Virus record (IMG/VR): IMGVR_UViG_3300048599_000281
DNA from: a virus
Length of the DNA stretch: 64,000 nucleotides
Strand: one strand, 5' to 3'
Positions 7,097 to 58,285 of the stretch are shown here, piece by piece (position 1 is the first letter of the stretch; every line of letters starts with the position of its first letter). Below the pieces are notes generated by a model, which was not told the origin of the DNA, ran no database searches, and saw only the letters and a list, made by a program, of their open reading frames with translations. Position numbers and translations under genes: made by a program.

Positions 7097-7123
7097 AACG
7101 GGGTTCTACGAGCTCCCGAAAGG

Positions 7124-7141
7124 TAAGTCAAGACTGACTGA
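7124..7141. repeat. AGTCA-N4-TGACT family palindrome, copy 2
   Basis: TAAGTCAAGACTGACTGA between the J-like gene and the fibre gene. Confidence 0.9.
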
Positions 7142-7143
7142 TT

Positions 7144-10100
7144 TTACAACCCGCGCGGTTCCAGGAATAGGATATTCGCCTGGTTAAATTTCCAGGTATA
7201 GGTGTAGGGAACAGACATGCCGCCAAATCCACCGTGAACGATCGTAGTGACCACGCGCACAGTGATGGTCTCTCCAACTGGCACCTGCACCATTAGGCCG
7301 CTGACGCTATAAAGCTGGCCGTTTAGAGCTGTAGGAATAGCGTTCGCCCCAGTAAGAGTAGACCTAAGTGTCGTGGTTGCGATCACAGTGCCGAGTTGAT
7401 TGAGAACCTGAAGCGAAACAGAAAAACTCTGACCACTGCCTGAAATACCGTCGTCGGTTCCCAGACCCATAACCACGCTCGCAAAGATCAATACCGAGCT
7501 TTTGTTTGATTGATAGGAAACGCTAGACACAACATCATTGGTCATACTAACCGCCGGTCCGACCGGATTGGCGCCCCAAGTGATGAGCGTCTTGTCGACC
7601 GGCGCCGGCAAAACCGATGCCTTGTTGTAGATCGCGAAATTGGAGTTGATATTGCTCGCGTTCAGATTAGTGATATAGGCCGTGTTGATATTGGCATTGA
7701 CGAAGTCGGCGACGTTCGCCGCGAGCTTGTCGGCTGTAATGACGTTCGCCGCGAGCTTGTCGGTCGTGATCGAGCCGTCGACGATCACATCGGCGTTGAT
7801 CTTCAGGGTATAGGAAACGGTGCCGTCGAGTTTTCGAATGCCCTCAAACAGGAAGCCGCCAGTCGTGTTGTCGATCGTGCCAGTTACGCCAAACTGAACC
7901 TTGACGCCGTCGTAGCTACCCTGGATCGTGTTGATCTGGGAGGTGTGGCCGTTCAGCGAGGTGGTGATGGACGAAATATTCGTAGCCAGCGCATTATCAG
8001 CGGTGACGCGAGCAGTCTGTTCGTTGGCGATCGCCGCCAGAACGCCGTCACCAATCTGCGCACTGAGAAGCTCTCGGGCGCGCGCCTCCGCGAGGTCGGC
8101 CTCAACCCGCGCATACTGTTCCTGAACGAACCGCGCCTGGACATTGTCGAGTTGCACCGACAGCATGTTGTGGATGCGCTGCAGACGGCCATCTTCGTCG
8201 TCGCGATCCTGAACCATCTGCGCCGACATGAGAGCGACAGCTTCGGCAAGATCCTCGACATCGAGCAGACTGGCGGCACCGTTGGTCTCGATGATCGACG
8301 GCAGCACCGCGGCGATCGCCTGCGACACACTCGTGACGGTAACGGAAATCTCCGAGCTGACGTTTAGCCCTTGCTTGCCGAAACGGTCATAGACAGCGAC
8401 GCGGACATAATAGGTGCCGGCATCCAGAGTGAGCACCGCCGTGGTGTCCGGACCGTCATAATCCGGCGCGATCAGCGAGGGGTTGAACCCGCCGGTCGAC
8501 TTGCACCAGATCATGACCCCGGCGAAGTCGTTATCCGTCGGCGGCGTGTAGCTGATTTCGAGGGTGTTGACGCCAGGCTTGATCGAGGGCGTCACCAGAG
8601 CCGGCACGGGATTATCAACCGAGATCGTCGCCGGATCGCTTTCGATGCCGGTTACCCCCTTCACGGTCACGTCGAAACGCAGCGCGCGGCGCGGGCCGCC
8701 GTCATTGACGTTCTTCTCGAAGTCGTAGGTATAGCTCGGCTGCCGCACGATTTCGGTGCGCAGCAGGTGATCAGCGGCGTCATAGACGCGCACCACGTTC
8801 TCGGGCTGATAGACGACAGCGTCGGTCGGAAACACGTTCTCCCAGACGAGCGTCGGTGCGGTGCCTTCAAAGGTCGTGCCGCCGCCCTGCAATTCGAGCA
8901 TGTCGACGACCGGAACCTCGATCGCTTCCCAGCCCTGCACCGTGAAGCCGTATTCGAGCGGCGGCGAAACATTGCCAGCCCGGTTCACAGACTGGATATA
9001 GAAGGTCCACTCGCCGGCGACGGGGTCGACGATATCGATGCTGGGCGTATTCGTCGGCGCAAAGGTCACGAAGCCACGGGGAGAGTCCGCGGTGACCTTG
9101 AAGTCGAGTGCCAGGAAATCGTTGACCGAGGTCCAGGACAGAGACACGCGCGAATGGGTGACGCCGTTCTGAAAATATCGGCTCTCGACGGCATGCGGGT
9201 TCGTCGGCGGCCTGATGATGTTGCTCGGGCGCGTATAGGTCGGCGCATCCAGAATAAGCCCCTGCTCTACCCGAGCGTATTTCGTCGGGTCATGAAACAG
9301 CGCAGTGACCGAGAAGATCTGCTTATCCTCACGCACCGAAAGCACGCGGTAGAGCTTGCCCTGAAGATCGACACCCTGGATGGCAAACTGAGTGCCGCGC
9401 TTTGGCAGGCTTGGAAGTGCGGTCGCAAGATTGACGATGGTATTGCCGCTCGCGAAGCTGTTGATGGTGCGTTTTTCCAGCGAGCCGTCTTCCATCACCA
9501 CGGTGACGTTATAGGTCACGCCGATCGTCGGCGCGAAAGGCGCATCGAGCTTGAGCTGTGTCAGCGAATTGACCGCAACCAGGCGCCCGCCGGCGCGCAC
9601 GCCGCCGGCCTTGTGCGGATCATTGACCAGGATGATCTGACCCGGACGCAGAGCCTGACCGTCTTCCAGGACGTGTCCGTCGAAGGACATATCGAAGGTG
9701 ACGGTTTCAGTTTCGTGTTCTTCAGCATCAAGGATCCAGCGGCCGAAACGGTTCGCCTGGCCGCGACTGGTGCAGCCGTGATGCTGCGCCTCAATCGAAT
9801 TCCAGCCATACCGGGCGAGCTGGTTCTGGTTCTGCACCACCTCCACTGCTGGTGCATAAAAGTCGGCCGGATCGTTCCAGGACACCATCGCAACCGAATG
9901 GCGGGCTTTCAGCGCGGTCTTGGAATAGTGAAAACGTCCATTGACCACGTTGGAAGGAGAGATCACCGTTGCGGGATCCTCCGGAATGTCGGCGGTCGCA
10001 AAGACTTGGCCGAGCGACCAATAGGCCATGCCGCGGAATGCCGTCGTGATGTTCTGCAGGACGCGATAGGCGTCCTCCCGCGTGATGATCTGGGTATTGA

Positions 10101-38892: not shown

Positions 38893-38916
38893 GGTATAAC
38901 GATTTCGCTAAATCGT
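38893..38916 (+). promoter_or_regulatory. Candidate parA promoter -10 (GGTATAAC) overlapping the inverted repeat ACGATTTCGCTAAATCGT
   Basis: GCTANAWC-like box followed immediately by a 7-bp-arm palindrome containing a TCGCTA half-site. Confidence 0.5.
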
Positions 38917-38937: not shown

Positions 38938-39579
38938 ATGCTGGCAATTGCCTGCCTTTCGCAGAAAGGCGGCGTCGGGAAATCGACGCTCGCGCGACTG
39001 ATCGCACGCACCTACGCCGTCGGGAAATGGCGGGTAAAGATCGCGGATTTCAACGTCAAACAGAAAACCTCGGTGGATTGGGCCGCGACCCGCATGGCGC
39101 AGGGTGTGGAACCGGAGATCCAGGCCGAGGCCTTCACCGATGTCGCCAAGGCGCTCCGGGAGGACTTTGACCTGGTGGTGTTTGACGGCAAGCCGGATTC
39201 GGACATGCAGACGCTCCAGCTCGCGCGCGACGCCTCGCTCGCGGTCATTCCGACCGGCGTCTCGATCGACGACCTGATGCCGCAGGTGCGCTTCGCCAAC
39301 GAATTGAAGATGCGCGGAATTCCGCCCGAGAAGCTCCTGTTCGTGATCAACAAGACCACCGACAGCGCGGCCGCGACCGTCGACGCCAAGAACTTCATCA
39401 TCGCCGGCGGCTACCGTGTCGCGGTGGTGTCGCTGCCGATGAAGACCGCCTATGTGAATGCGCATAATTCCGGCCGCTGCGTCGCCGAGACCGATTTCCC
39501 GACGCTCAATGAGCGCGCCGAACAGCTTGCAGTCGAGATCGTGCGCGAGGCGACCAATCTAGGCAGGGCCGCTGCATGA
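38938..39579 (+). CDS. parA: ParA/Soj-family partition ATPase
   Basis: Deviant Walker A SQKGGVGKST. 213 aa. Confidence 0.9.
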   Translation: MLAIACLSQKGGVGKSTLARLIARTYAVGKWRVKIADFNVKQKTSVDWAATRMAQGVEPEIQAEAFTDVAKALREDFDLVVFDGKPDSDMQTLQLARDASLAVIPTGVSIDDLMPQVRFANELKMRGIPPEKLLFVINKTTDSAAATVDAKNFIIAGGYRVAVVSLPMKTAYVNAHNSGRCVAETDFPTLNERAEQLAVEIVREATNLGRAAA

Positions 39580-39869
39580 CCGAGGAGAAGAAATCGCTGG
39601 TGCCGCCTCCCCCGCCGCGCGGTCCACGCCGCGGGCTCCTGGTCGAGGTGCCCAAGACCGTCACGACACCGGACAACCTGTCGACGCCCAATTCCGGGCT
39701 CCAGGACATGAATTTCAAGGTGCCACCGGACTTTCATCGGGCGTTCAAGACGGCCGCAGTGATGCGCGGCATGAACATGAAAGAGCTGCTAGAAGCCAGC
39801 TTCCAGTGCTGGGTCGAGACCTACGGCGACGATCAGCTCAAGGCGTTTTTGCCGATGCTGAAGAAATAG
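39576..39869 (+). CDS. Ribbon-helix-helix partner protein (ParG-like centromere-binding candidate)
   Basis: 4-nt overlap with parA. C-terminal MNFKVPPDFHRAFKTAAVMRGMNMKELL RHH pattern. Disordered Pro-rich N-terminus. Confidence 0.72.
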   Translation: MTEEKKSLVPPPPPRGPRRGLLVEVPKTVTTPDNLSTPNSGLQDMNFKVPPDFHRAFKTAAVMRGMNMKELLEASFQCWVETYGDDQLKAFLPMLKK

Positions 39870-41766: not shown

Positions 41767-42027
41767 CGGAAATCGACGGATGACAGATCCGGCAAGGACT
41801 GGAGAATTCCCGATCGGGCGCGGTCTCAGGACAGCGGACACCAGATGTCGATCCGCGAGCACCCGCAAGAAAGCCCCGTGGAATATAGGCCGGCAAGGAG
41901 TGGCGTAATCGGGTTGGCGACACAGGCGGCATAGGGATCGCGGGCGAAAAATCCCTCTAGGACTTCAGTGTCATTTTTATCACAGTCAAGCGCGGGATCG
42001 ATCGATGTGCGAAATTTATTTTCAGCG
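41767..42027 (-). ncRNA. Candidate non-coding transcript between two leftward promoter-like units
   Basis: About 260 nt with no credible ORF. A promoter-like unit (box + palindrome) lies at 42028-42059 and the next unit at 41738-41766. Confidence 0.25.
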
Positions 42028-42047
42028 ATCAGTCAGTAATGACTTGA
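42028..42047. repeat. AGTCA-N4-TGACT family palindrome, copy 14
   Basis: ATCAGTCAGTAATGACTTGA. Confidence 0.85.
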
Positions 42048-42051
42048 CGTG

Positions 42052-42059
42052 TAATAGCG
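42052..42059 (-). promoter_or_regulatory. -10-like box CGCTATTA
   Basis: Same box-plus-palindrome arrangement as at 41758, 55749 and 63724. Confidence 0.45.
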
Positions 42060-42124
42060 GAGCTCTAAGCTGCATCTATCGACGTTGAATCAACAACGCG
42101 ATGCAACACAAGAGAGATACGACA

Positions 42125-42730
42125 ATGTCTAAGAAGCAAGACGCATACAACGCGACTCGTGAAGCTGCATTCGATTCGCGCGTCGAATACGAGACTGCAA
42201 AGAACGCGAACAACGCGAACATGCAGAAGACGCTCGCAGACATGCGCAAGCTTTTCGCGAACGACAAGATTGCTAGCATCATGCTCGCGTGCAACGTCGA
42301 TGCGAATTTCATCAATCGCAACGAGCGCAACAACGCACGCTACAACGTGTATGCAGCAGAGAAAGTCGCGAACGTCGCGCGCTATCTCGCGAAAGTCGCG
42401 TCGCTGAATCACTACTCTCTCGCAATCATCAAGACAGCGCACGCGCTTGAACGCGCTTCGCTCAAGATGACGCACAAAGACGCTGCACGCGCTTGCACGA
42501 ATGACAGCAAGCTTTCTGACAAGACGCGCGAAGCTATCGTGTCGAAGTGCTGCTACGCTAAGACAGTCGCAGCGAATACAACGTCGACTCAGTCGTCGTC
42601 GTCAATCAACGCTTTGCAGACATTCAATGTCTTGAGCGAAGCGCGCGATGAAAATAACAACGTCGTCTATACGCTGAATCGCGAAAGCGATGCGACAAAG
42701 CAGATTCTCTCTGCGCTCGAATTGCAATAA
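42125..42730 (+). CDS. Gly/Pro/Trp-free protein, paralogue of 45342..46220
   Basis: 201 aa from ATG 42125 (GG-free RBS AAGAGAGA). Aligns with the 45342..46220 product, e.g. IMLACNV..ARYNVYAAEKVANVARYL vs VMIACTV..SRYNVYAIGKLADLVRGL, and TQSSSSINALQTF vs TQASSTMQALETL. Confidence 0.7.
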   Translation: MSKKQDAYNATREAAFDSRVEYETAKNANNANMQKTLADMRKLFANDKIASIMLACNVDANFINRNERNNARYNVYAAEKVANVARYLAKVASLNHYSLAIIKTAHALERASLKMTHKDAARACTNDSKLSDKTREAIVSKCCYAKTVAANTTSTQSSSSINALQTFNVLSEARDENNNVVYTLNRESDATKQILSALELQ

Positions 42731-42739
42731 CGCGACAAC

Positions 42740-42765
42740 GTGAAGCGCGCGAAAGCGCGCTTCAC
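42740..42765 (+). other. Intercistronic GG/CC-free hairpin
   Basis: GTGAAGCGCGC-GAAA-GCGCGCTTCAC, an 11-bp perfect stem with no T-run. Confidence 0.7.
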
Positions 42766-42798
42766 TCTCGCAAGATGCAAACACAAGAGAGATTGCAA

Positions 42799-43032
42799 AT
42801 GTCGAACAAGTCAAAGACTCTCACGTTGATTCGCGACGTGTCGCGCAAGATGAAAGCGAACACGCGCGAAGCGTCGCTTCTTTTGTCGCTCGATTATGAC
42901 GAATGCGAAGCGCAAGAATATCGTCGCGCTTGCGAGCGCGAGCAAACGAGCGACACAATGTCTGACGACTCGATTGCGTTTCATGCGCAGATGATTCGCT
43001 ATCATCGCAATCGCGCAAAGCTAGTGTTCTGA
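42799..43032 (+). CDS. Small Gly/Pro/Trp-free protein
   Basis: 77 aa from ATG 42799. Its leader ATGCAAACACAAGAGAGATTGCAAATG is nearly identical to that of the preceding gene. Confidence 0.6.
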   Translation: MSNKSKTLTLIRDVSRKMKANTREASLLLSLDYDECEAQEYRRACEREQTSDTMSDDSIAFHAQMIRYHRNRAKLVF

Positions 43033-43036
43033 CAAA

Positions 43037-43072
43037 ACCGCCACAGTGGCTCGATAGACTCACTGTGGCGGT
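43037..43072. terminator. Hairpin between convergent units (T-run only on the minus-strand side)
   Basis: ACCGCCACAGTG-N12-CACTGTGGCGGT. The minus-strand reading is followed by TTTTGTC. Confidence 0.6.
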
Positions 43073-43360
43073 CCAGCCACACGGCGCCTCCCGCGGCATA
43101 TCCGCCACACTGCCTCATCGCCGCCACGTCATCCAATAGCCACGTCACTGCCCAGCCACATGGCTTCCCGACCACATGGCATTTCCGCCATGTGTCCCTC
43201 GGGCCATGTGGCTTTTCCGTATGGGGCAGTGCCCCATGGGATCCCGCGGCGGCTCGGGGCGCCAAGGGGCCATTCGGCCAGTCCCATGGACCCTACCGGT
43301 TCCTAAAATCGCCGGCGCCCCACACCATGAGCGCCGACGCCTTTAGTCGCCTTTGTTCCT
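43073..43360. repeat. Noncoding array A: GCCAC(A/G)(C/T)(G) and CCATGG-type words
   Basis: GCCACACGG, GCCACACTG, GCCACGTCA x2 and CCACATGG x2 at roughly 16-26 bp spacing, then inverted CCATGTG x2 and CCCATGG x2. Ends with GGTTCCTA words. Confidence 0.8.
43281..43305 (+). repeat. 25-bp direct repeat GTCCCATGGACCCTACCGGTTCCTA, copy 1
   Basis: Identical to 45222-45246. Confidence 0.9.
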
Positions 43361-43670
43361 AAGCCGCTCGACTGAGCCCGATATATTCGCCATTCGGCTT
43401 GCCCCACTCTCTCCAGGGCAGACAGACATTCGGCAGCTTCTGCAGGCGTCGGTAATATTCCCGCAGGATCCGCGTCACCATCCGGGCCTCGGTGAGCGTG
43501 CGGCACTTGATCGGCGCTTCGAACAGGAACAGCGGCATCCACGCCACCCGCTTCAGACGGAGCGAGTATTCGTGGATCAGCACCGCGCCATCGATCACGA
43601 ACTCGATGGCGTCGCCGTTGGCGTTGAACTTGGTGGGACGGGCCTTTGCCTTGATCTTGAGCTTAGACAT
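43359..43670 (-). CDS. Hypothetical protein
   Basis: 103-aa ORF, overlapping the upstream gene by 8 nt. Confidence 0.62.
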   Translation of the reverse strand: MSKLKIKAKARPTKFNANGDAIEFVIDGAVLIHEYSLRLKRVAWMPLFLFEAPIKCRTLTEARMVTRILREYYRRLQKLPNVCLPWREWGKPNGEYIGLSRAA

Positions 43671-43842
43671 CGAGCCCCTCCACTGCGCAATAGGCGCCGA
43701 TGATCACCATGCCGTGCGGGCGTGGTGCGTAGGGCGCGATTTCGACTGCCTCGGCGCAGAGCTCCGAAGCGACGTGCTGGCGCATGGCGACGGGCTCACA
43801 GGTGCCGCCGAACATGCAGAGGATGACGAACAGGGTTTCCAT
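43663..43842 (-). CDS. Hypothetical small protein
   Basis: 59 aa from ATG 43842, 5 nt after the upstream stop. Confidence 0.5.
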   Translation of the reverse strand: METLFVILCMFGGTCEPVAMRQHVASELCAEAVEIAPYAPRPHGMVIIGAYCAVEGLDV

Positions 43843-43847
43843 GTGCG

Positions 43848-43943
43848 TCAGTCCAGCATCATGACGGCGGTGAGAGCTGCGGCGCCGGCGAGCAAGGTCG
43901 ACCCGAGGAACCAGCAGATATCGATGGTGAAGAATTTGAGCAT
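43848..43943 (-). CDS. Tiny membrane peptide
   Basis: MLKFFTIDICWFLGSTLLAGAAALTAVMMLD. Leader GATGCAAACACGGAGAGCACAAATG. Confidence 0.4.
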   Translation of the reverse strand: MLKFFTIDICWFLGSTLLAGAAALTAVMMLD

Positions 43944-43993
43944 TTGTGCTCTCCGTGTTTGCATCACACAGACAGCATGACAGCGCCGGCGTC

Positions 43994-44006
43994 GGATTGC
44001 GGGTGG
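43994..44006 (-). promoter_or_regulatory. CCWACCGCAWTCC-type upstream box (CCACCCGCAATCC)
   Basis: 29 nt upstream of the ATGCAAAC leader. Confidence 0.5.
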
Positions 44007-44166
44007 TCTCGGTAGGCACGTTGAGGCCTGGTGAGATCGGACCTGGCCTGCGGCCGACAGAGGCCTAAGCCCCATGGACCTCCCTTCTTCCTGTACTTCC
44101 CGCCACGGAGTAGTCAGCTCCGTGCAGGTTACGGGGACGGATCAGAAGCGCGCTACGCGCCGCGGT

Positions 44167-44340
44167 TCAAAGCGACTTCATGGCTTCACCATTTTTCATG
44201 CGTTCAAATCTTCGACGCACCTTCTCCAGCGCGTCGCTGTATTCCTTCTGCTTCGCCTCGGTCTCACCCGCGCCATCGATGGCGACATCGGCGAGTTCAA
44301 GCACCTTGCGGAGCGCCTCGGCATCGACGAGGATCTTCAT
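44167..44340 (-). CDS. Hypothetical small protein
   Basis: 57 aa from ATG 44340 (ATGA overlap, GGAG RBS). Confidence 0.55.
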   Translation of the reverse strand: MKILVDAEALRKVLELADVAIDGAGETEAKQKEYSDALEKVRRRFERMKNGEAMKSL

Positions 44341-44513
44341 GGCGTCTGCTCCATTGCCGCCTTGGTGTGTTTCAGGGCGGTGAGAATTCGGGATCGGGTC
44401 TTCGGCAACCCGACGGCATCCTTCAGCGCGCAGCGGAGAGCTTCCCGTGCCGGAGCATAGGCTCCGCATTTCAGGAGCTCGCGCGCGATGGTGAGATTCA
44501 GTTCGAGGAGCAT
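44337..44513 (-). CDS. Hypothetical small protein
   Basis: 58 aa, MLLELNLTIARELLKCGAYAPAREALRC.. TGATG and ATGA overlaps on both ends. Below the track cutoff. Confidence 0.5.
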   Translation of the reverse strand: MLLELNLTIARELLKCGAYAPAREALRCALKDAVGLPKTRSRILTALKHTKAAMEQTP

Positions 44514-44671
44514 CAGCGTGCCTTGGCGGCGATCGTGACGCGCCCCTCGTCGATCACCTCGATCATCAGACGGCAGGACTCTTTTGCTTCGGGTGAAATC
44601 GTGCCGTCGAAATTCTTATCCTCGGCGAGCCCGAGTTCCAGAATGTCGCGAATATGGATCAGATCGAGCAT
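44513..44671 (-). CDS. Hypothetical small protein
   Basis: 52 aa from ATG 44671 with GAGGG 5 nt upstream. Confidence 0.55.
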   Translation of the reverse strand: MLDLIHIRDILELGLAEDKNFDGTISPEAKESCRLMIEVIDEGRVTIAAKAR

Positions 44672-44688
44672 TGCGCCCTCGTTGTTTG

Positions 44689-44719
44689 CATCACGCTGTG
44701 ACTGTTGCACAGCGTGATG
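44689..44719 (-). other. 12-bp-stem hairpin in a 5' leader
   Basis: CATCACGCTGTG-N7-CACAGCGTGATG. The 3' arm runs into the GATGCAAAC leader. Confidence 0.7.
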
Positions 44720-44720
44720 C

Positions 44721-44733
44721 GGAATGCGGTAGG
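44721..44733 (-). promoter_or_regulatory. CCWACCGCAWTCC-type upstream box (CCTACCGCATTCC)
   Basis: 29 nt upstream of the ATGCAAAC leader. Confidence 0.5.
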
Positions 44734-44837
44734 CGCTGCTAGGCAGCTTTGCGCCGCGGGTTCTGCGCATGAGCAAGCGCCAGAGCACTCGTCTTGAAGC
44801 AGCCCACCCACGGACCGGTGGACGAGGAGCTCCAATA

Positions 44838-44972
44838 TCAGCCCTGACCCTTGGGACCCCGCTTCCAAGCGATCACGTAGCCGTCGTGACAGCCCTCATG
44901 AGAATTCGCCGAGGCGTCGCCGAGGATCGAGTTGGCACGCCAGGGTTTTGTCTTCGGCATGATCCAAGCCAT
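44838..44972 (-). CDS. Possible small ORF
   Basis: 44 aa, MAWIMPKTKPWRANSILGD.., with GGAGAAG 6 nt upstream. Confidence 0.35.
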   Translation of the reverse strand: MAWIMPKTKPWRANSILGDASANSHEGCHDGYVIAWKRGPKGQG

Positions 44973-45036
44973 GTTCGTCTTCTCCGTTGGTTACGTTGCG
45001 TCGTCGCAACGCAATCAGAGCAGCACGCTCCGGCGT

Positions 45037-45049
45037 GGATTGCGGTTGG
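45037..45049 (-). promoter_or_regulatory. CCWACCGCAWTCC-type box (CCAACCGCAATCC)
   Basis: Here it lies 12 nt downstream of the -10-like box at 45062. Confidence 0.45.
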
Positions 45050-45061
45050 TCTGTTGCGGGA

Positions 45062-45070
45062 GATATAGCG
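45062..45070 (-). promoter_or_regulatory. -10-like box CGCTATATC
   Basis: At the left edge of array B. Confidence 0.5.
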
Positions 45071-45300
45071 CCTAAAATCTCAGGCCACGGACTTCTCACC
45101 AAGGGCTTCGCCCCATGGAGAACCACGGTGCGCTCAACCCACGGCCGGGCCATGGCGCAAACCCCTTGGTTCGAACCCCGTGGGTCAGGCAGCCGAGGAT
45201 CGTCCCGGTGCCATGCACCGGGTCCCATGGACCCTACCGGTTCCTAGGCCTGACGCGCGTGGTTCCTAAAATCCTGGTCCCATGGCGCAGCTCGCACAGT
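45071..45300. repeat. Noncoding array B: CCATGG x4 plus CCACGG/CCGTGG/CCTTGG/CCAAGG words
   Basis: Dense CC-NN-GG hexamers. Contains the 25-bp block and a duplicated GGTTCCTA. Confidence 0.8.
45222..45246 (+). repeat. 25-bp direct repeat GTCCCATGGACCCTACCGGTTCCTA, copy 2
   Basis: Identical to 43281-43305. GGTTCCTAAAATC follows after a 14-bp insertion. Confidence 0.9.
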
Positions 45301-45325
45301 GAAAAGGGGCGCCGAAGCGCCCCTT
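45301..45325 (-). terminator. Rho-independent terminator after 45342..46220
   Basis: Minus-strand AAGGGGCGC-TTCG-GCGCCCCTT followed by TTC. Confidence 0.85.
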
Positions 45326-45341
45326 CCCTTTGTGTCGGCGA

Positions 45342-46220
45342 TCAGGCCGAGGTCGCCGCCATCATGCGCGCTTCCAGATGCGCCACCGCGGGGTGGTCCG
45401 TCAGCGTGAAGGTCGGGTTGCGAACCGAACCCTCGCGCTTGACGAGGCCCAGGGTCTCCAGAGCCTGCATCGTGGACGAGGCTTGCGTGGGCGCGGTCGA
45501 GGCGCTCACGGTGTGCCGATGCAGCGCCGAGCGCAGCGACACGTCCGCGACCTTGATCTTGTCCGAAGCCGCAGCCTTCGCCAGCTCGCCCGTGAAAGCG
45601 AGACCGGCCTTGCGGAACTGGAACAAGGACTTCAGACAGGCGCGGTTGATGGCGTTCTGGACCGAGCCATCGGTCAGACCGCGGACGAGATCGGCGAGCT
45701 TGCCGATCGCGTAGACGTTGTAGCGGGAACCCTCGTGATAGGTGCGATTGAGGGTCTCCGGGGTGACGGTACAGGCGATCATCACGCGAGCGGCGCGCCG
45801 CGTCACCATCGCCTCGCGAGCGGACTTGAGGGTGCGCTGGATATTGTGTCCATCGCCCTTCTTCGCCTTCTCGAACTCCACGCGCTCGTCGACCGCCTTG
45901 GCGATCTTGCCGACGACCACGTCCGCATCCGCATCGCTGATCGCGTTGATCTGCTGGCTGAACGGGGTGGAAGCCTGCGGATCTTCGACCGCGAGCACCG
46001 TCTGCGCCTCGATGTTGCTCGGCGCCGTCGGCACATGGACCGGTTCGGCTTCGAGGCTGAGGCTCTCGATCGCCGCAACGTCGTCGGCGTCGATCAGCAT
46101 CGGCGACGGGTCCATCTGGGCTTCGGTCGGGGCGGTGGTCTCGGTCATGGCGAACTCGGTCGCGGGCTTCTCGCTCGCCACCTCGACGTTCTTCGCCTTC
46201 TTGTCCTTACGCTTGCTCAT
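45342..46220 (-). CDS. Phage protein of unknown function (family with 42125..42730 and probably 57527..58219)
   Basis: 292 aa from ATG 46220 (GGAG 6 nt upstream); the track start at 46244 lies inside the conserved leader. Acidic N-terminal half and a conserved C-terminal half. Confidence 0.78.
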   Translation of the reverse strand: MSKRKDKKAKNVEVASEKPATEFAMTETTAPTEAQMDPSPMLIDADDVAAIESLSLEAEPVHVPTAPSNIEAQTVLAVEDPQASTPFSQQINAISDADADVVVGKIAKAVDERVEFEKAKKGDGHNIQRTLKSAREAMVTRRAARVMIACTVTPETLNRTYHEGSRYNVYAIGKLADLVRGLTDGSVQNAINRACLKSLFQFRKAGLAFTGELAKAAASDKIKVADVSLRSALHRHTVSASTAPTQASSTMQALETLGLVKREGSVRNPTFTLTDHPAVAHLEARMMAATSA

Positions 46221-46289
46221 TTCGATCTCCGTTGCTGTTTGCATCCGTCACGTTGTTGTGACGATTGCGACAGTCGCAGATCGCGGTGC

Positions 46290-46302
46290 GGAATGCGGTA
46301 GG
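46290..46302 (-). promoter_or_regulatory. CCWACCGCAWTCC-type upstream box (CCTACCGCATTCC)
   Basis: 45 nt upstream of the ATGCAAAC leader at 46237-46244. The hairpin CGTCAC-N6-GTGACG lies between them. Confidence 0.5.
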
Positions 46303-46399
46303 CAAATGCATAGGCGCACAGGCAGCTCGTGCGCGCTCGCGCGTTCTTTATACATGCGCACAACCGAGCTTTTAGGCAGGTGTGGGGTTGTGGCGGCGC

Positions 46400-46700
46400 G
46401 GGAGTGGAGCTGGTGTGGACTTCCTCGGTCGGGCCATGGCGAACCAAGGAGAACCAAGGAATGCCTCGGAGAGGCCATGGTCTCCCAGCCGGAGAGATCC
46501 GCCATGTTTCGTCTATTATAGGCCTAGTTATACCTAATAGACGAAAATAGGCTTTTTGGTCGAAATGGGAAAATGGGGTGTCGAGTGTTCCATGGCTCCG
46601 GCTCGGGAAAGGGGTTCGCCATGGGACAGCCTGGCGGCGGCGATCGCCAAGGTTCCTGCCGAAGCATGGCTCGCGCCGGTTCCTAGATTCCTGAACTGAT
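46400..46700. repeat. Noncoding array C: CCATGG x4, CCAAGG x3, GGTTCCT words
   Basis: Same word set as arrays A and B, interrupted by the 46507-46546 inverted repeat. Confidence 0.75.
46507..46546. repeat. Perfect 12-bp inverted repeat TTTCGTCTATTA-N16-TAATAGACGAAA
   Basis: Contains two CGTCTATTA boxes in opposite orientation. Confidence 0.9.
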
Positions 46701-46769
46701 GGGTGAAAGGGCGAGGCCGACACAAACGGGCCGGCCTCGCAAGGTGCGGACCGCAGCAAGTGCGGCCGT

Positions 46770-46830
46770 GATGCAAACGACACCGCGGAGATCGGTGAGA
46801 GCGTGTCTAAGCGCAAACCCCTAGACGCAG
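46770..46830 (+). pseudogene. Degenerate inverted copy of the leader and first codons of the 46220 gene
   Basis: GATGCAAACGACACCGCGGAGATCGGTGAGAGCGTGTCTAAGCGCAAA resembles GATGCAAACAGCAACGGAGATCGAAATGAGCAAGCGTAAG. The downstream ORF 46803..47192 has atypical third-position composition. Confidence 0.3.
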
Positions 46831-47028
46831 CGTCGCAAGCGAGAGATAGCGCGTGTCGATGTGGATCGCAATCGGCGGTCATAGGGCAGATCGTCAGGGG
46901 TGAGGATGGTGGGGCGCCAACCCGTCGTCTCACCTGTCTTCTTCCCCACGATCGTCTTTCTGTCTCCCCTATGCGTCTCCCCTGCCCTCGTCTCTCTATG
47001 GCGTCTCATGCTCTTAAGAGCCTGGTAG

Positions 47029-47037
47029 CGTCTATTA
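47029..47037 (+). promoter_or_regulatory. CGTCTATTA box, copy 4
   Basis: GCGTCTATTAGGT, in a tract with repeated CGTCTC words. Confidence 0.6.
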
Positions 47038-47125
47038 GGTGCTCTGGTGAGCATCGTCTCCGATATACGTTTTCCCTTATAGAAAGCGCAGATCCCGATC
47101 AGCTTCAGATTATAGATTTCGCGGT

Positions 47126-47138
47126 GTCGCTAAATCGC
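47126..47138 (+). promoter_or_regulatory. Isolated TCGCTA-type site GTCGCTAAATCGC
   Basis: Same half-site as the 56.6-kb array and the parA operator. Confidence 0.5.
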
Positions 47139-47233
47139 TCGGGGCTATCTTTCTGCGGGGTCTGTTTGCTTGTGCGGGGTGAGCACTCTTAAGTCTATCG
47201 GTGGTGTTTGTGCTGTCGGGAGTATGAGAATTT

Positions 47234-47496
47234 TGGTTGTCTTTTGGGTCGAAAATTATTTTGGGCGTTGGTTGTGCAACTAAGAGTCAACCAAACGACA
47301 ACCAGTCAGCACTGAATTGGTAATCGGGTATTGCCCGCAGAGCGATTTGGTTGTTATTTTGGTTGCATTGGGCCTGGAGAGAGCGGCGGGCTTGTGGGTG
47401 AAAATAGTGGCCTGGTGGGGTTGGACTACCAGGCCTGGTGGGGAGAGACCTCTGTGCGGTGGACCTGGTTGTTACTGGTTGTCTTGATGACAACCG
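47234..47496. repeat. TGGTTGT / ACAACCA word cluster
   Basis: At least 8 copies in both orientations (47234, 47269, about 47290-47303, 47348, 47359, 47466, 47476, 47490). The last ones fall inside the lipoprotein signal-peptide codons. Confidence 0.65.
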
Positions 47497-47780
47497 GCTG
47501 CGTGACGAATGAGAGCGGCTTGCGGTGGGCGACGGCGCCGGGTGAGCAGGTCCAGGTCAACGGCACGAACTATTGGGTGGCCTGGGTTGCCAGAGAGGGC
47601 GGCTATGATCTGCGCAGCGGCTACAAGGAGATCGTGAGCACACTGGATGAGATTGCGGACAAGGCCAATGCGGTGACGGCAGCGAAGCAAGTCGGGGCGA
47701 AGCTGTGCGGCCGGCCGATTGCGATCGAGACCGAGGACAAGGCTGGCCGGCTGTATTCGTTTCGGATCCGGTGCGCCTGA
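47454..47780 (+). CDS. Lipoprotein (candidate lysogeny-expressed moron)
   Basis: GTG 47454 with GGAGAG 6 nt upstream. VRWTWLLLVVLMTTGC has a lipobox Cys. Rightward gene in a leftward region. Confidence 0.68.
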   Translation: MRWTWLLLVVLMTTGCVTNESGLRWATAPGEQVQVNGTNYWVAWVAREGGYDLRSGYKEIVSTLDEIADKANAVTAAKQVGAKLCGRPIAIETEDKAGRLYSFRIRCA

Positions 47781-56416: not shown

Positions 56417-56623
56417 ATGGGCGAAATTTCAAAAGAACGCTTTGAGGAATTGGTGTCAGAAATGACTGACCGCCTGCTGGGAGAGGTGAAACGGTTTGCA
56501 GAGGAAAAGCAGCTCGGGTCGTTCTCGACCGACGCGCTCCATCAAATGTCGACGCCGCTGACCGAGATCACGGGTGAACTCCTGATGTTCGGATCCGATG
56601 TCTGGCCCTTTTCCACGATTTAG
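56417..56623 (+). CDS. Hypothetical small protein
   Basis: 68 aa from ATG 56417. Rightward gene facing the repeat array. Confidence 0.5.
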   Translation: MGEISKERFEELVSEMTDRLLGEVKRFAEEKQLGSFSTDALHQMSTPLTEITGELLMFGSDVWPFSTI

Positions 56624-56773
56624 CGAGGTCGCTAAAACCAGCTTTAGCAACGTCGCCAATTAGCGACCATGCTAATTGGCGATGCCGCTAATTGGCGATG
56701 TCGCTAAAACGCGAATGATCGAAATCGCTATTGAGCGAGGTCGCTCTTTGGCGGCGTCGCTAATTGGCGAAGT

Positions 56774-56782
56774 CGTCTATTA
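56774..56782 (+). promoter_or_regulatory. CGTCTATTA box, copy 5
   Basis: Embedded in the array as GTCGTCTATTAGCGG. Confidence 0.55.
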
Positions 56783-56851
56783 GCGGGGTCGCTATTCAGC
56801 GATGTCGCCAAGTCGCTCTTTCGTGGATAGCGACCTCGTGCTTTGGCGAAG

Positions 56852-56881
56852 TCGCTATGCCGCGTTTTCGCGGCATAGCGA
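56852..56881. repeat. Perfect 13-bp-stem palindrome TCGCTATGCCGCG-TTTT-CGCGGCATAGCGA
   Basis: Its left arm is repeated: the 20-bp direct repeat CGCTATGCCGCGTTTTCGCG lies at 56853-56872 and 56893-56912. Confidence 0.9.
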
Positions 56882-56894
56882 AAGAGCGATACCG

Positions 56895-57092
56895 CTATGC
56901 CGCGTTTTCGCGATCCAGCTTTGCATTGAGTTTTGCGAGGCTTTTGTTGCGGGGATTGTGAATCTGGATCGTCGCCGGGCCTTGCTGCGCTCGCACGCCG
57001 GCGCCACCGCAGGCCTGGCAGTTCCACCATTCACGCACGCCTTGTTGCAGCGTGAAATGCGAGCAGGCGCCGTGGCAGAGCGAGCAGATCAT
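56895..57092 (-). CDS. Small Cys-rich (zinc-ribbon-like) protein
   Basis: 65 aa, MICSLCHGACSH..WNCQACGG. GC-rich third positions and no clear RBS. The stop lies inside the second 20-bp repeat. Confidence 0.45.
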   Translation of the reverse strand: MICSLCHGACSHFTLQQGVREWWNCQACGGAGVRAQQGPATIQIHNPRNKSLAKLNAKLDRENAA

Positions 57093-57526: not shown

Positions 57527-58219
57527 TCAGGCAGCGGCGATCCCGCGCAGCGCAGCAGCGACCTGGGAGTTCGGATTGCGCTCCAGGGTCTGCTTCGTGC
57601 GGGTCGCGATCTTGACCGTGTCGAACAGGTTCATGATCTGCCCCGCCTGCGAGCGCGCCGTGCCCTCGCTGTAGGAGGCTCCGGACCGCTTCGACGCGGC
57701 GCGCAGCGCAGCGACGAGATCGGCCTGGGTCACGGTGCCGGCCTTTTCGAGCGCCTCGAAGCAGACCATCGCGTAGACCGACGGTTTCTTGCCGGCGGCG
57801 ATGCTCTGGAACAGGTTCTCGAACTTCTCGGCGATCTTCTTCTGCTTGGGCAGAAGCGCGATCACCGCGGCCTTGTTGGCTTCCGGATCGACGGTCGAGC
57901 CGATGGTCAGCTCGAAATGCTTGGCGTCGATCGCGTTCAGATCGCGCGGCGTGCGCGGCGCGCCAGCCTTGCGGGTCTTCTCGGCAGCCGGGGCTTCCGG
58001 GGTCGCTTCGGGCTCGATGCCGCTGGCCGAGACCGGTGCGGCTTCGTAGTGCTCCGATTTCGCCTCGACCAGCTCGACCGCGGCCTCGTCGGCCGGATCC
58101 AGCTCGACGATCGCCGGATCGCTGGTGAAGCTCTCCAGGTCGAGTTCGGCGAGCTGAGCATCCACCGCGGCGATCTCCGCAGCAGACGGCGTCTCGGTAT
58201 TCACAGTGCGCTTGTCCAT
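57527..58219 (-). CDS. Phage protein, probable third member of the 42125/45342 family
   Basis: 230 aa from ATG 58219 (AAGGAG RBS). Acidic N-terminal half. C-terminal SEGTARSQAGQIMNLFDTVKIATR..RNPNS resembles STAPTQASSTMQALETLGLVKR..RNPT. Confidence 0.68.
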   Translation of the reverse strand: MDKRTVNTETPSAAEIAAVDAQLAELDLESFTSDPAIVELDPADEAAVELVEAKSEHYEAAPVSASGIEPEATPEAPAAEKTRKAGAPRTPRDLNAIDAKHFELTIGSTVDPEANKAAVIALLPKQKKIAEKFENLFQSIAAGKKPSVYAMVCFEALEKAGTVTQADLVAALRAASKRSGASYSEGTARSQAGQIMNLFDTVKIATRTKQTLERNPNSQVAAALRGIAAA

Positions 58220-58276
58220 CAGACACTCCTTCTCTGTTTGAGGAATGATCGCATTCGCGCTCTCATTCGATGTTTC

Positions 58277-58285
58277 AGACATAGC
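58277..58285 (-). promoter_or_regulatory. -10-like box CGCTATGTC
   Basis: The degenerate upstream box CCAACCGACTTCC lies 11 nt further upstream (58297-58309). Confidence 0.5.

Follow-up and report, generated by a model that had tools for sequence, protein, structure and literature searches.

The non-coding arrays of CCATGG-type words in the window, i.e., the 64,000 nucleotides analyzed here of an RHEph10/pLM21S1-like phage-plasmid of wastewater origin (the whole element is ~119 kb), appear to be clusters of protein binding sites, a conclusion that is well supported by the spacing of the words and the conserved positions of the arrays. For a more specific explanation, namely that they are double-stranded DNA binding-site clusters for an element-encoded dimeric protein, likely of the winged-helix family, and serve as operator- or enhancer-like platforms, we consider the chances to be about even. 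The observation in the original prediction that started this analysis is confirmed.

Arrays in the window

Three arrays (A, B and C) were originally described; all three were recovered, and a fourth, small one was found between A and B. The arrays and the features adjoining them are:

41995-43038, plus strand: GG/CC-free tract, adjoining array A and conserved along with the arrays in most relatives
43037-43072, minus strand: GC-rich hairpin with arms ACCGCCACAGTG and CACTGTGGCGGT, just past the stop codon of the 42799-43032 gene
43073-43360, minus strand: array A, with CCATGG-type sites at 43284 and 43234, and CCAAGG at 43262
44040-44160, minus strand: small array, between the end of the 44167 gene and the leader of the 43943 operon
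45071-45300, minus strand: array B, with 12 CCNNGG sites, a head block and a second GGTTCCTAAAATC word at 45261
45304-45325, minus strand: GC-rich hairpin directly 3' of the 45342-46220 stop codon, parting that gene from array B
46400-46700, minus strand: array C, with two halves, an inverted repeat in an AT-rich core and a degenerate head

The CCATGG counts claimed for A, B and C (2, 4 and 4) were exact on recount: the word occurs at 43234 and 43284 in A, at 45113, 45150, 45225 and 45280 in B, and at 46434, 46475, 46590 and 46619 in C. There is one more in the small array (44072), and 7 in the remaining 60 kb. The density of CCATGG is 11.5 per kb in the arrays, compared to 0.12 per kb outside; the corresponding densities of CCNNGG are 32.3 and 5.05 per kb. 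Enrichment was tested using 2000 dinucleotide-preserving shuffles of each array. The 12 CCNNGG sites of array B (shuffled, 3.4+/-1.8) were reached by 0/2000 shuffles, and the 9 sites of array C exceed the shuffled 2.9+/-1.6 at p=0.002, whereas array A, with 6 strict CCNNGG sites versus 3.9+/-1.9, shows no significant enrichment (p=0.19). The description of the arrays as packed with CCNNGG is accurate for B and C, but not for A, the sites of which are one-base-expanded variants, e.g., GCCACATGGC. CCATGG itself is enriched in A (p=0.048), and its counts in B and C were reached by no shuffle. The arrays had been described as non-coding, and a tblastx comparison with relatives agrees: no conserved frame runs across them, and the only match is a short nucleotide-conserved block that matches in all frames.

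Each array is located 3' of a gene end or hairpin and 5' of the next operon. Array A, read on the minus strand, starts with TAGGAAC, located at the 43359 stop codon, followed by the head block, the CCATGG-type sites and GCCAC/GTGGC decamers. The reported series of GCCAC-type words (43123, 43139, 43155 and 43171) followed by inverted copies (43187 and 43203) is real; the decamers have a step of exactly 16 bp and together make up a long, imperfect palindrome with its centre near 43183. The folding z-scores of array A are -7.4 and -6.5, and the 43037-43072 hairpin belongs to one of the two folds. The T-run of the 43037-43072 hairpin is on the minus strand only, so that the hairpin would terminate minus-strand transcripts crossing array A. 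The small array contains CCATGG (44072), CCACGG (44103) and a degenerate head block, AGGAAGAAGGGAGGTCCATGGGGC. In array B, three CCNNGG sites with a 14-bp step recur in mirror image, giving an inverted repeat of 34 nt (45085-45118 and 45150-45183). The first half of array C consists of five CCNNGG sites 10-11 bp apart (46434-46475), followed by the AT-rich core (about 46500-46560), more sites (46590-46647) and the degenerate head (TAGGAACCGG...GCCATG) at 46650-46690; the same two-half layout is found in V1VFA-S, pLM21S1 and locus L012. It should be noted that spacings in this window are mixed, i.e., 10-11 bp in C, 14 bp in B and 16 bp in A.

Conservation and helical phasing

About 25 related loci were examined, 18 of them in detail. 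Arrays of the same kind are common to more than 20 related elements, and the 18 loci, including RHEph10, a Methylobacterium AMS5 plasmid and IMG/VR contigs, contain 47 CCATGG clusters at equivalent positions; pLM21S1 and plasmids of Shinella and Pararhizobium have arrays at matching positions. Phased sites are nearly absent from the remainder of the window and from 62 kb of pLM21S1; thus, the arrays are restricted to one locus. Two distant relatives (L028 and L029) have weak arrays or none.

The distances between CCNNGG pairs within arrays peak at 10 bp (105 pairs), 20 bp (53) and 30 bp (31), compared to about 7-24 pairs at other distances, and this ladder is absent outside the arrays. A set of 135 decamer units, for which the search itself required CC and GG, shows essentially no constraint on the four spacer bases, ruling out recent tandem duplication, and a bias of the central pair to AT, AC, GT and GC. 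The combination of 10/20/30-bp spacing with unconserved spacers suggests a protein that reads double-stranded DNA from a single face. Coding sequence, slippage repeats and RNA structure were also considered as the basis of the arrays, and do not fit 10-bp phasing with free spacers.

The recognized unit would be a palindrome-like six-base CC-N2-GG, with CCATGG preferred and CCACGG, CCGTGG, CCGCGG, CCTCGG and CCAAGG tolerated. Units that are typically exactly 10 bp apart would place the bound dimers on one helix face, where we infer that they cooperate or wrap the DNA. Situated past the end of one transcription unit and ahead of the promoter and leader of the next, the arrays could act as operator- or enhancer-like platforms, through which the small cassette operons and the binder's own gene would be switched on or off together. 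No sigma-70 consensus promoter was found adjoining the arrays, so the regulatory targets are suggested by repeated leader sequences alone.

The head block

A polar head element, TTTTAGGAACCGG plus the dyad GGGTCC-ATG-GGACCC, is present at the start of every array, and the 25-mer GTCCCATGGACCCTACCGGTTCCTA that had been noticed in A and B is this element. The two exact copies (43281 and 45222) are in direct orientation, 1941 bp apart, as claimed (~1.94 kb), and seven small ORFs were counted between them, in agreement with the seven small genes that they were said to bracket. There is no further match to the 25-mer in the window at <=3 mismatches, and none in shuffles.

43281-43310, minus strand: head block copy A, GATTTTAGGAACCGGTAGGGTCCATGGGAC on the minus strand, including the 25-mer
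45222-45246, minus strand: head block copy B, the exact 25-mer

The head block is 90-100% identical between genomes whose proteins share about 45-60%, and pairing in its dyad is kept through double changes (G:C to A:T and G:C to C:G). Two variants of the dyad are G-T pairs, which fit RNA better than DNA. The head element comes first in the transcription direction and would be a high-affinity or nucleating site; given its polarity and the G-T variants, it may also have an RNA-level or promoter role.

The candidate binder

Two genes adjoin the arrays and encode related proteins:

45342-46220, minus strand: gene encoding 292 aa, with an N-terminal part that is acidic and disordered, a helical domain, and a winged helix-turn-helix at the C-terminus
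42125-42730, plus strand: paralogue gene (201 aa), inside the GG/CC-free tract and converging on array A

The 57527 protein had originally been named alongside these two. The 42125 and 45342 proteins are indeed paralogous (33% identity, E=2e-25), but the 57527 protein shows no detectable relation by BLASTP, and profile comparison yields a faint match in the C-terminal motif only. The 45342-46220 gene is flanked by arrays C and B in every relative. The structural model of its product has pLDDT >90 over residues 85-292, and by Foldseek the C-terminus resembles winged-helix DNA binders: TubR ranks first and ArsR/SmtB and MarR proteins come next, at probabilities of up to 0.99 and E-values of 0.17-0.7 that are not significant alone. 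The most conserved segment, STAPTQASSTMQAL, is the helix preceding the wing. The 42125 protein contains no Gly, Pro or Trp.

On the basis of adjacency and predicted fold only, the winged-helix family (45342-46220 and 42125-42730) is the best candidate for the array binder, and a plausible one. The proposal that the arrays are binding-site clusters for the paralogues thus divides in two: phasing, free spacers and positions kept in more than 20 genomes argue for protein sites, whereas a paralogue as the binder is plausible. No co-variation between the winged-helix protein and CCNNGG was found across the genomes compared. The putative recognition helix is identical in CCATGG-preferring genomes and in those using CCTAGG, CCTTGG or CCGCGG, and L028 and L029 retain it as well.

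Alternative explanations

Array C and the 1.2 kb of non-coding DNA on its right could together be a replication origin, in which the phased sites would be iterons for the winged-helix protein as initiator, with B and A as accessory copies; we consider this unlikely, although it deserves to be taken seriously. Initiators are often winged-helix proteins encoded beside their iterons, array C has its halves arranged around a ~60-bp AT-rich core (as do those of V1VFA-S, pLM21S1 and L012), the DNA at 46.9-47.5 kb is repeat-rich and non-coding, and cumulative GC skew has its minimum at 44-46 kb, followed by a steep rise (+0.21 at 47-48 kb). However, the G-rich repeats themselves could cause this skew, no DnaA boxes were identified, the words are 6 bp long at a 10-bp step, rather than 17-22-bp iterons, and the core is absent from B, A and the small array. 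Moreover, pLM21S1 has RepC as its plasmid replicon, at a distance of about 60 kb from the arrays of that plasmid. Origin elements, one of the original suggestions, are thus conceivable for C alone, with its AT-rich core and phased sites.

Less probable still is that the arrays and the GG/CC-free tract lie within a long direct terminal repeat of the virion and take part in forming the ends, in packaging or in the staged entry of the DNA. The T5 segment that enters first lacks restriction sites, and a GG/CC-free tract beside repeat-rich DNA recalls it; the arrays would work like the repeat-rich injection-stop region of T5 or the arrays of short repeats that adjoin the terminal repeat of T7. In the relatives B1VFA and V1VFA-S, the ends are fixed and carry direct terminal repeats of 3.6 kb and 3.9 kb, respectively (PMC12509600), and the V1VFA-S region that reaches from the arrays through the GG/CC-free tract (L006, roughly 5965-9904) is about repeat-sized. 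The location of these repeats, however, is absent from PMC12509600 and is not revealed by the deposited records, the arrays are interleaved with transcription units of the same polarity, and plasmid-borne copies conserve the arrays equally.

It is similarly improbable that crossovers at the two copies of the 25-mer head block exchange the cassette between them, by way of a site-specific recombinase or, more likely, through homologous exchange at conserved regulatory sequences, as with the PeSL cassettes of T4-type phages. The head copies bracket variable genes in several genomes: L012, L019 and L023 likewise have two direct copies, 0.86-1.85 kb apart, and only 1/7 of the small ORFs of the window has an L012 homologue. 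The block is also far better conserved than the surrounding genes. Conversely, RHEph10, L008, L024 and L034 have one recognizable head copy each, no recombinase was found adjoining the locus, no joint skipping 43306-45221 was detected in four public runs of very low depth, and a head block on every array suits regulation. The originally suggested recombination sites retain the bracketing of variable genes, but no recombinase or deletion variant.

We regard an RNA function of the head block or of whole arrays, e.g., as a nut-like linear and hairpin site, a processing site or a minus-strand protein-sponge RNA, as quite improbable. The polarity of the head block is always that of transcription, both G-T variants pair on the gene-sense strand only, the T-run of the 43037-43072 hairpin suggests that array A may be transcribed, and parts of A and C are covered by contigs from RNA-labelled runs. 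These wastewater runs, however, yield scattered low-depth contigs, coding and non-coding alike, and may contain DNA; the dyad co-variation, of two double-change kinds, is in one base pair only and probably represents two events; there is no Rfam match; and palindromic words phased at exactly 10 bp, with free spacers between them, are a feature of double-stranded DNA.

The arrays are very unlikely to be the centromere (parS/parH-like) of the type Ib system of the window, bound by its ribbon-helix-helix protein as omega binds on pSM19035:

38938-39579: ParA of the type Ib partition system
39576-39869: ribbon-helix-helix partner of ParA

This pair is 3-4 kb away in every relative, and short symmetric tandem words are what ribbon-helix-helix dimers read. 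A partner beta-strand of NFK, SFK or TFK goes with CCATGG arrays, and three TFNM genomes lack CCATGG, but clade is a confounder of this co-variation, and the motif at the parA promoter shifts in that clade, too. A different palindrome, ACGATTTCGCTAAATCGT, is found at the parA promoter, and its core TCGCTAAAT makes about 20 tandem 16-bp iterons at 56560-56900. Furthermore, the unrelated plasmids Y. pestis pTP33 and Nostoc p057_D, with the same LNFKV strand in the ParA partner, have TTCGCTAAAT/TTAGCGAAA beside parA and no CCATGG arrays. The partner thus appears to recognize TCGCTAAAT, at the parA promoter and at 56.6-56.9 kb, rather than the array words, and the suggested centromere role is disfavoured for this ParA system.

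CCATGG, CCWWGG and CCRYGG are known types of restriction-modification target, and CCATGG outside the arrays is about 2.7-fold rarer than base composition predicts (7 vs ~19 expected, an estimate). Nevertheless, clusters of methylation or restriction sites, e.g., CCATGG or CCWWGG, as also suggested originally, are a most improbable explanation, given that single arrays contain words with different central dinucleotides (CCATGG, CCACGG, CCTCGG, CCTAGG and others), that helical phasing would have no role, and that pLM21S1 has no recognizable DNA methyltransferase (PMC5537653).

Comparison with known systems

The P1 pac site, with clusters of the hexamer TGATCA/G, resembles the arrays in that palindromic hexamers are clustered in a phage-plasmid; however, pac is a single 162-bp intragenic site under Dam methylation, whereas here there are four arrays, variable in their central bases and unconnected with the terminase genes, which are 14 kb away. 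In iteron origins (lambda O/ori-lambda and RepA/pi-type systems), as in array C, a winged-helix gene adjoins phased repeats and an AT-rich segment, but the words here are 6 bp at 10 bp instead of 17-22 bp, three of the four arrays have no AT-rich core, and the RepC replicon of pLM21S1 is far from its arrays.

In TubR-tubC, a type III partition system of plasmids and phages, TubR dimers read short tandem repeats beside the tubR gene and assemble into a filament on the DNA. TubR is the best structural match of the C-terminus of the flanking protein, although a weak one (E=0.17), and this protein has an additional helical domain and two to three times the size of TubR; tubC is one array, as opposed to four interleaved with operons. 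T4-type PeSLs are also repeated conserved modules (terminator hairpin and promoter region) flanking small variable genes of unknown function, and such modules could drive cassette shuffling, but they are about 50-70 bp long and lack phased binding-word arrays. In the plasmid-prophage N15 (four sopC-like sites) and the plasmid RK2 (twelve KorB operators), one protein with dispersed partition or regulatory sites among operons couples maintenance and gene control; those sites are single long palindromes, genome-wide, whereas the phased-hexamer arrays are all within 3.6 kb.

The omega heptad arrays (parS1-3 of pSM19035) and ParG/parH of TP228 differ from the present arrays in having contiguous 7-bp or 8-bp units, compared to CC-N2-GG at a 10-bp step, and here the ribbon-helix-helix partner of ParA appears to read TCGCTAAAT instead. 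They share with them several dispersed non-coding arrays of short words, direct and inverted, located upstream of several operons, where a small dimeric protein that binds cooperatively acts as a global regulator, the role that we propose here.

Array census and phasing

Motif counts over the window bore out every count of the original prediction. CCATGG occurs at 18 sites in 64 kb, and 11 of the 18 are between 43234 and 46619, all of them in four non-coding stretches:

43073-43360: array A
44040-44160: small array
45071-45300: array B
46400-46700: array C

The small array was not listed in the original prediction. The density of CCATGG is 11.5/kb in the arrays and 0.12/kb elsewhere, and that of CCNNGG is 32.3/kb and 5.05/kb, respectively. 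Compared to dinucleotide-preserving shuffles, the proposed packing with CCNNGG beyond composition holds strongly for arrays B and C but not, for the strict word, for array A (p=0.19), which is enriched in CCATGG (p=0.048). The 25-mer shared by arrays A and B is exact at 43281 and 45222, with zero occurrences in the shuffles. The sites of array A, where a GCCAC-type series had been noted, are mostly one-base-expanded forms (for example, GCCACATGGC) that recur every 16 bp exactly and are then repeated in inverted orientation; upon folding, positions 43090-43270 form a single long, imperfect palindrome (minus strand, -183 kcal/mol, z=-7.4). Because the left arm, which carries the 16-bp step, is missing in the related locus L012, this arm appears to be an inverted duplication specific to the lineage. 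No conserved reading frame runs through the arrays, in agreement with their proposed non-coding character; a tblastx search for such frames returned only nucleotide-level block matches in a noisy output.

Phasing was analyzed in 47 arrays from 18 loci (10.3 kb in total). The distances between CCNNGG words peak at 10 bp (105 pairs), 20 bp (53) and 30 bp (31), compared to approximately 7-24 pairs at other distances, and no such ladder of peaks was found outside the arrays. Of 178 cases of neighboring CCATGG sites, 26 have a spacing of 10 bp and 12 one of 20 bp. The 135 decamer units show a bias in the central pair (CCATGG 51, CCACGG 18, CCTCGG 15, CCGTGG 12, CCGCGG 12), their four spacer bases are free, and the longest runs comprise six units. 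Recent tandem duplication as the source of the arrays is ruled out because the spacers are free. The register is found in the window at the following positions:

46434, 46444, 46454, 46465, 46475: 10-11-bp register in array C
45113, 45123: 10-bp register in array B, occurring once

Array B otherwise has a 14-bp spacing, mirrored as a 34-nt inverted repeat, and array A has one of 16 bp. Phasing of a palindromic word by exactly one helical turn is characteristic of double-stranded DNA, and the simplest reading is that a dimeric protein reads each word, with neighboring words aligned on one face of the helix. Repetition, helical phasing and a conserved position upstream of transcription units are traits that the sites share with operator- or enhancer-like arrays. 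The arrays are best described as polar, head-marked sets of helically phased CC-N2-GG protein-binding words between small-gene cassettes; the mechanism beyond the binding of a protein at these sites is what we infer.

The element and its relatives

The gene content of the window includes:

5-30 kb: tail tip, tape measure, portal and large terminase genes
33-40 kb: helicase, two ParB-N-domain proteins and a small ParA

The portal protein has 55% identity to that of Rhizobium phage RHEph10 and ~53% to those of SSU5-type phage-plasmids, the ParA-partner protein is also on record in a 119-kb contig and in a JGI metagenome contig, and parts of the window are present in wastewater metagenome runs. 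On these grounds, we assign the element to the RHEph10/pLM21S1-like siphoviruses that are able to live as plasmids; published descriptions of such elements are of plasmid-like prophages that encode RepC and partition proteins (PMC4447125, PMC12509600). The window contains neither tRNA genes nor matches to Rfam families, no Pfam or PHROGs family was found for nine proteins in and around the arrays, and a nucleotide search of phage and plasmid collections with 42000-47500 produced no match.

The scan of viral contigs with the 25-mer matched one contig, in which a GG/CC-poor two-gene operon is followed by GCCAC-type and CCATGG words and then by the block, in the same layout as in the window; the scan of genome contigs yielded three loci only. 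The protein encoded at 45342 has over 250 homologues, some of them on 110-118-kb contigs from Methylobacterium and Faunimonas isolates. Using this protein and the ParA partner, we gathered approximately 25 loci, including RHEph10, V1VFA-S, RHph_N1_15, pLM21S1, Methylobacterium AMS5, Shinella and Pararhizobium plasmids, and IMG/VR and Logan contigs. The arrays, which the original prediction proposed to look for in related phages, are conserved at the same positions: in nearly all of these loci, CCATGG clusters lie directly upstream and downstream of the 45342 homologue and in 1-3 other intergenic gaps. In the V1VFA-S/pLM21S1 clade, CCATGG is absent and the arrays are built of CCTAGG, CCTTGG, CCAAGG and CCGCGG. 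Almost no phased sites occur in the rest of the window or in 62 further kb of pLM21S1. The feature is real, non-random, confined to one locus and conserved across the whole phage-plasmid group.

Polarity, head element and leaders

The arrays lie after a gene end or a GC-rich hairpin, and downstream of them is a repeated leader composed of CCTACCGCATTCCGCA or CCGCAATCC, a hairpin, GATGCAAAC and a ribosome-binding site, followed by the next operon. In the form noted upstream of operon-first genes, the hairpin is short and GATGCAAAC(A) precedes the ribosome-binding site.

45304-45325: hairpin after the 45342 gene, preceding an array
stop codon of the 43359 gene: preceding an array
end of the 44167 gene: preceding an array
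43944-44010, 44671-44734, 44973-45060, 46221-46303, minus strand: leader copies at operon-first genes
42100-42124, 42770-42798, 46767-46802, plus strand: leader copies at operon-first genes

The leader may be a phage-specific promoter or a 5' untranslated region; a sigma factor gene of its own is present in pLM21S1.

On the minus strand, in the direction of the genes, the arrays open with a head element that consists, in this order, of TTTTAGGAACCGG, a T, a purine (A or G) and GGGTCC-ATG-GGACCC. The 25-mer of the original prediction represents two perfect copies of this head, and degenerate copies are found in the small array and in array C. The head is 90-100% identical between genomes with ~45-60% protein identity, and two copies are also present in L012, L019 and L023. 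In the head dyad, double changes G:C > A:T occur in the second copies of L012 and L019, and G:C > C:G in L024 and L033; two variants form G-T pairs, and 92.9% of cells are paired. The co-variation score was reached by none of 500 shuffles, with one of six pairs varying (four double changes, A:U twice and C:G twice, probably representing two events). This pattern fits a structure-forming or strictly symmetric site, for which a nucleation site, a part of a promoter and an RNA hairpin are the candidate readings. The head block matches no Rfam family. A reading of the head block as an ECF-type or sigma-54 promoter was not supported by eye, with no consistent -10 or -12 element at the right distance. 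In the search for RNA evidence on the locus, wastewater runs contained scattered low-depth contigs only, and the run search with the Methylobacterium locus returned only irrelevant runs.

Candidate binding protein

The ribbon-helix-helix (RHH) ParA partner was initially favored as the binder since the presence of CCATGG follows the type of its beta-strand, and the following sites bear on it:

39576-39869: unannotated RHH protein of 97 aa, overlapping the end of parA, RHH motif MNFKVPPDFHRAFK
38899-38916: palindrome of the parA promoter
56560-56900: ~20 tandem 16-bp iterons, (A/T)TTRGCGANGTCGCT, sharing the TCGCTAAAT core with the parA-promoter palindrome
47127, 57452: further copies of the TCGCTAAAT core

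This protein has sub-threshold matches only, to the RHH_10 and Omega_Repress families, and its homologues adjoin ParA on plasmids from cyanobacteria to Yersinia. CCATGG arrays are present in genomes in which its strand contains NFK, SFK or TFK and in none of the three with TFNM; the parA-promoter palindrome differs in the TFNM clade, too. The parA promoter, with its palindrome ACGATTTCGCTAAATCGT, is devoid of CCNNGG words. In the unrelated plasmids Y. pestis pTP33 and Nostoc p057_D, whose ParA partners share the LNFKV strand, TTCGCTAAAT/TTAGCGAAA is found next to parA, and CCATGG arrays are absent. We rejected the RHH protein as the array binder since the parA operator, the 16-bp iterons and the unrelated plasmids tie it to TCGCTAAAT. 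The originally proposed centromere-like role of the arrays becomes unlikely as well, at least for this ParA system: the CCNNGG arrays do not share the operator motif of the parA promoter, and the CCATGG arrays do not travel with the binding protein into unrelated replicons. The parA palindrome, the shared TCGCTAAAT core and the Yersinia and Nostoc motifs make the 56.6-kb iteron array the most likely partition centromere.

By adjacency and predicted fold, the winged-helix paralogue family is the local candidate binder that is left. The original prediction named three paralogues; the 42125 and 45342 proteins are indeed paralogous (E=2e-25), whereas any relationship of the 57527 protein to them is very distant. 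The latter protein (57527-58282) matches phrog_5235 and shares a faint C-terminal motif only (GTARSQAGQIMNLF...RNPN versus STAPTQASSTMQAL...RNPT of the winged-helix family); TCGCTAAAT-type words lie directly past its stop codon. The 45342 protein, adjacent to array C, belongs to no Pfam or PHROG family; the neighboring ORFs encode 31-103 aa, with no family match in Pfam or PHROGs, and the best viral matches of the family are uncharacterized proteins of ~190 aa. The structural model of the family is confident (pLDDT above 90 over residues 85-292), and its C-terminus is modeled as helix, helix, beta-hairpin and helix. Foldseek with this C-terminal part placed TubR first (E=0.17, target-normalized TM-score 0.55), followed by ArsR/SmtB and MarR, with probabilities up to 0.99 and E-values of only 0.17-0.7; no similarity to TubR was found at the sequence level. 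In TubZRC (type III) partition, a tubulin-like GTPase, TubZ, is encoded beside TubR; the ORFs neighboring the 45342 gene are the small ones without a family match mentioned above. A profile search against sequences of solved structures was discarded: apart from a faint match of the ArsR type, its matches were spurious, with helical fusion partners.

The most conserved segment of the family, STAPTQASSTMQAL, is the helix preceding the wing, and it is the same in genomes of the CCATGG type and of the CCTAGG type. Such constancy agrees with a reading of the invariant CC/GG edges and lends it no positive support. In the distant relatives L028 and L029, the helix is kept and the arrays are weak. The arrays single out this uncharacterized winged-helix family as a likely candidate for a master regulator.

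Alternative readings: possible cassette exchange, replication origin or methylation sites

Use of the head blocks as points of cassette exchange is consistent with the variable gene content between the conserved blocks. Recombination sites that bracket a cassette had been considered in the original prediction; none of the 10 proteins scanned in and around the locus matches recombinase families (Pfam, PHROGs), and neither the deletion variants proposed at the 25-mers nor excised or inverted forms or joints were found in public runs, in which depth is very low.

It is possible that array C is a replication origin. It includes an AT-rich core (~46500-46560) that is conserved in three relatives, and the GC skew has a minimum at 44-46 kb, which is suggestive at most. 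However, the core is absent from arrays A and B and the small array, the adjacent protein matches no Rep or other family in Pfam or PHROG, and RepC of pLM21S1, the sole recognized initiator in a relative, is encoded ~60 kb from the arrays of that plasmid. To the right of array C, 46700-47410 is a large stretch without a conserved gene (GC skew +0.21), and the relatives have a ~1.3-kb gap at its position. Repeats in and around this stretch are:

46962-47073: GTCTC-type repeats
47232-47485: TGGTTGT repeats
47409, 47432: GGCCTGGTGGGG
46509, 46532 (inverted), 47028: GTCTATTAGGT-type words, recurring in V1VFA-S

The 47028 copy, GTCTATTAGGTG, is matched exactly in V1VFA-S.

Clusters of methylation sites are unlikely, with a variable central dinucleotide in the decamer units and no recognizable DNA methyltransferase in pLM21S1 (PMC5537653). 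Among the functions originally proposed, clusters of protein-binding sites are the one that phasing and positional conservation support.

The GG/CC-free tract and its possible link to virion ends

The tract at 41995-43038 contains a 979-nt run without GG or CC on either strand and a single GG (42059) in 1044 nt, although its G+C content is 51%. Within the run is a two-gene operon, directly preceded by a promoter-like TTGACG-N16-TAAGCT site; its 201-aa product, a paralogue of the 45342 protein, contains no Gly, Pro or Trp. At least 15 relatives have an equivalent run, of 450-1531 nt and in either orientation, and the run comes after the array block in nearly all of the ~25 loci.

Virion DNAs of B1VFA and V1VFA-S have direct terminal repeats of 3.6 kb and 3.9 kb, the position of which is not stated (PMC12509600). 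In V1VFA-S (L006), the arrays and the GG/CC-free tract (~5965-9904) span about the length of those repeats and may coincide with them. The record ends of B1VFA and RHph_N1_15 are not repeated, and one of these records is circular.

We consider it improbable, but worth spelling out, that the arrays form a single system with the GG/CC-free operon, each being one half of it, based on the reading of CC/GG. Under this scheme, a protein that recognizes little beyond phased CC..GG words, either the winged-helix family or a host factor exploited or evaded by the phage, would use the head blocks as nucleation sites and coat the arrays, perhaps together with DNA that is simply GC-rich. The operon encoding a copy of the same family would have been purged of GG/CC, such that nothing of that kind could bind, block or cut it. 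If this DNA were also the 3.6-3.9-kb terminal repeat of the virion, it would be a pre-early segment that enters first, as in T5, and escapes the notice of GG/CC-dependent defenses, with the arrays as its stop or switch region.

Implications and comparison with known systems

Phage-plasmids of the RHEph10/pLM21S1 type are common in Rhizobiales and Methylobacterium, and their early and maintenance regions encode almost wholly hypothetical proteins. Within those regions, no cis-regulatory signal is clearer than the arrays, and their conserved grammar, in which phased CC-N2-GG words come after a head, shows where each small-gene cassette begins. It could also mark the cassette boundaries at which anti-defense or host-takeover genes are probably exchanged, and may explain the unusual adjoining 1-kb tract without GG/CC on both strands. 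If the arrays are ordinary operators, the grammar is still a useful annotation rule for this group.

The consulted publications on RHEph10, pLM21S1, B1VFA and V1VFA-S make no mention of the arrays, the head block or the link to the GG/CC-free operon. Operator, iteron and centromere arrays are well-known examples of the general type; it is the word, the strictness of its 10-bp register, the head block and the association with the GG/CC-free operon that appear not to have been described before.
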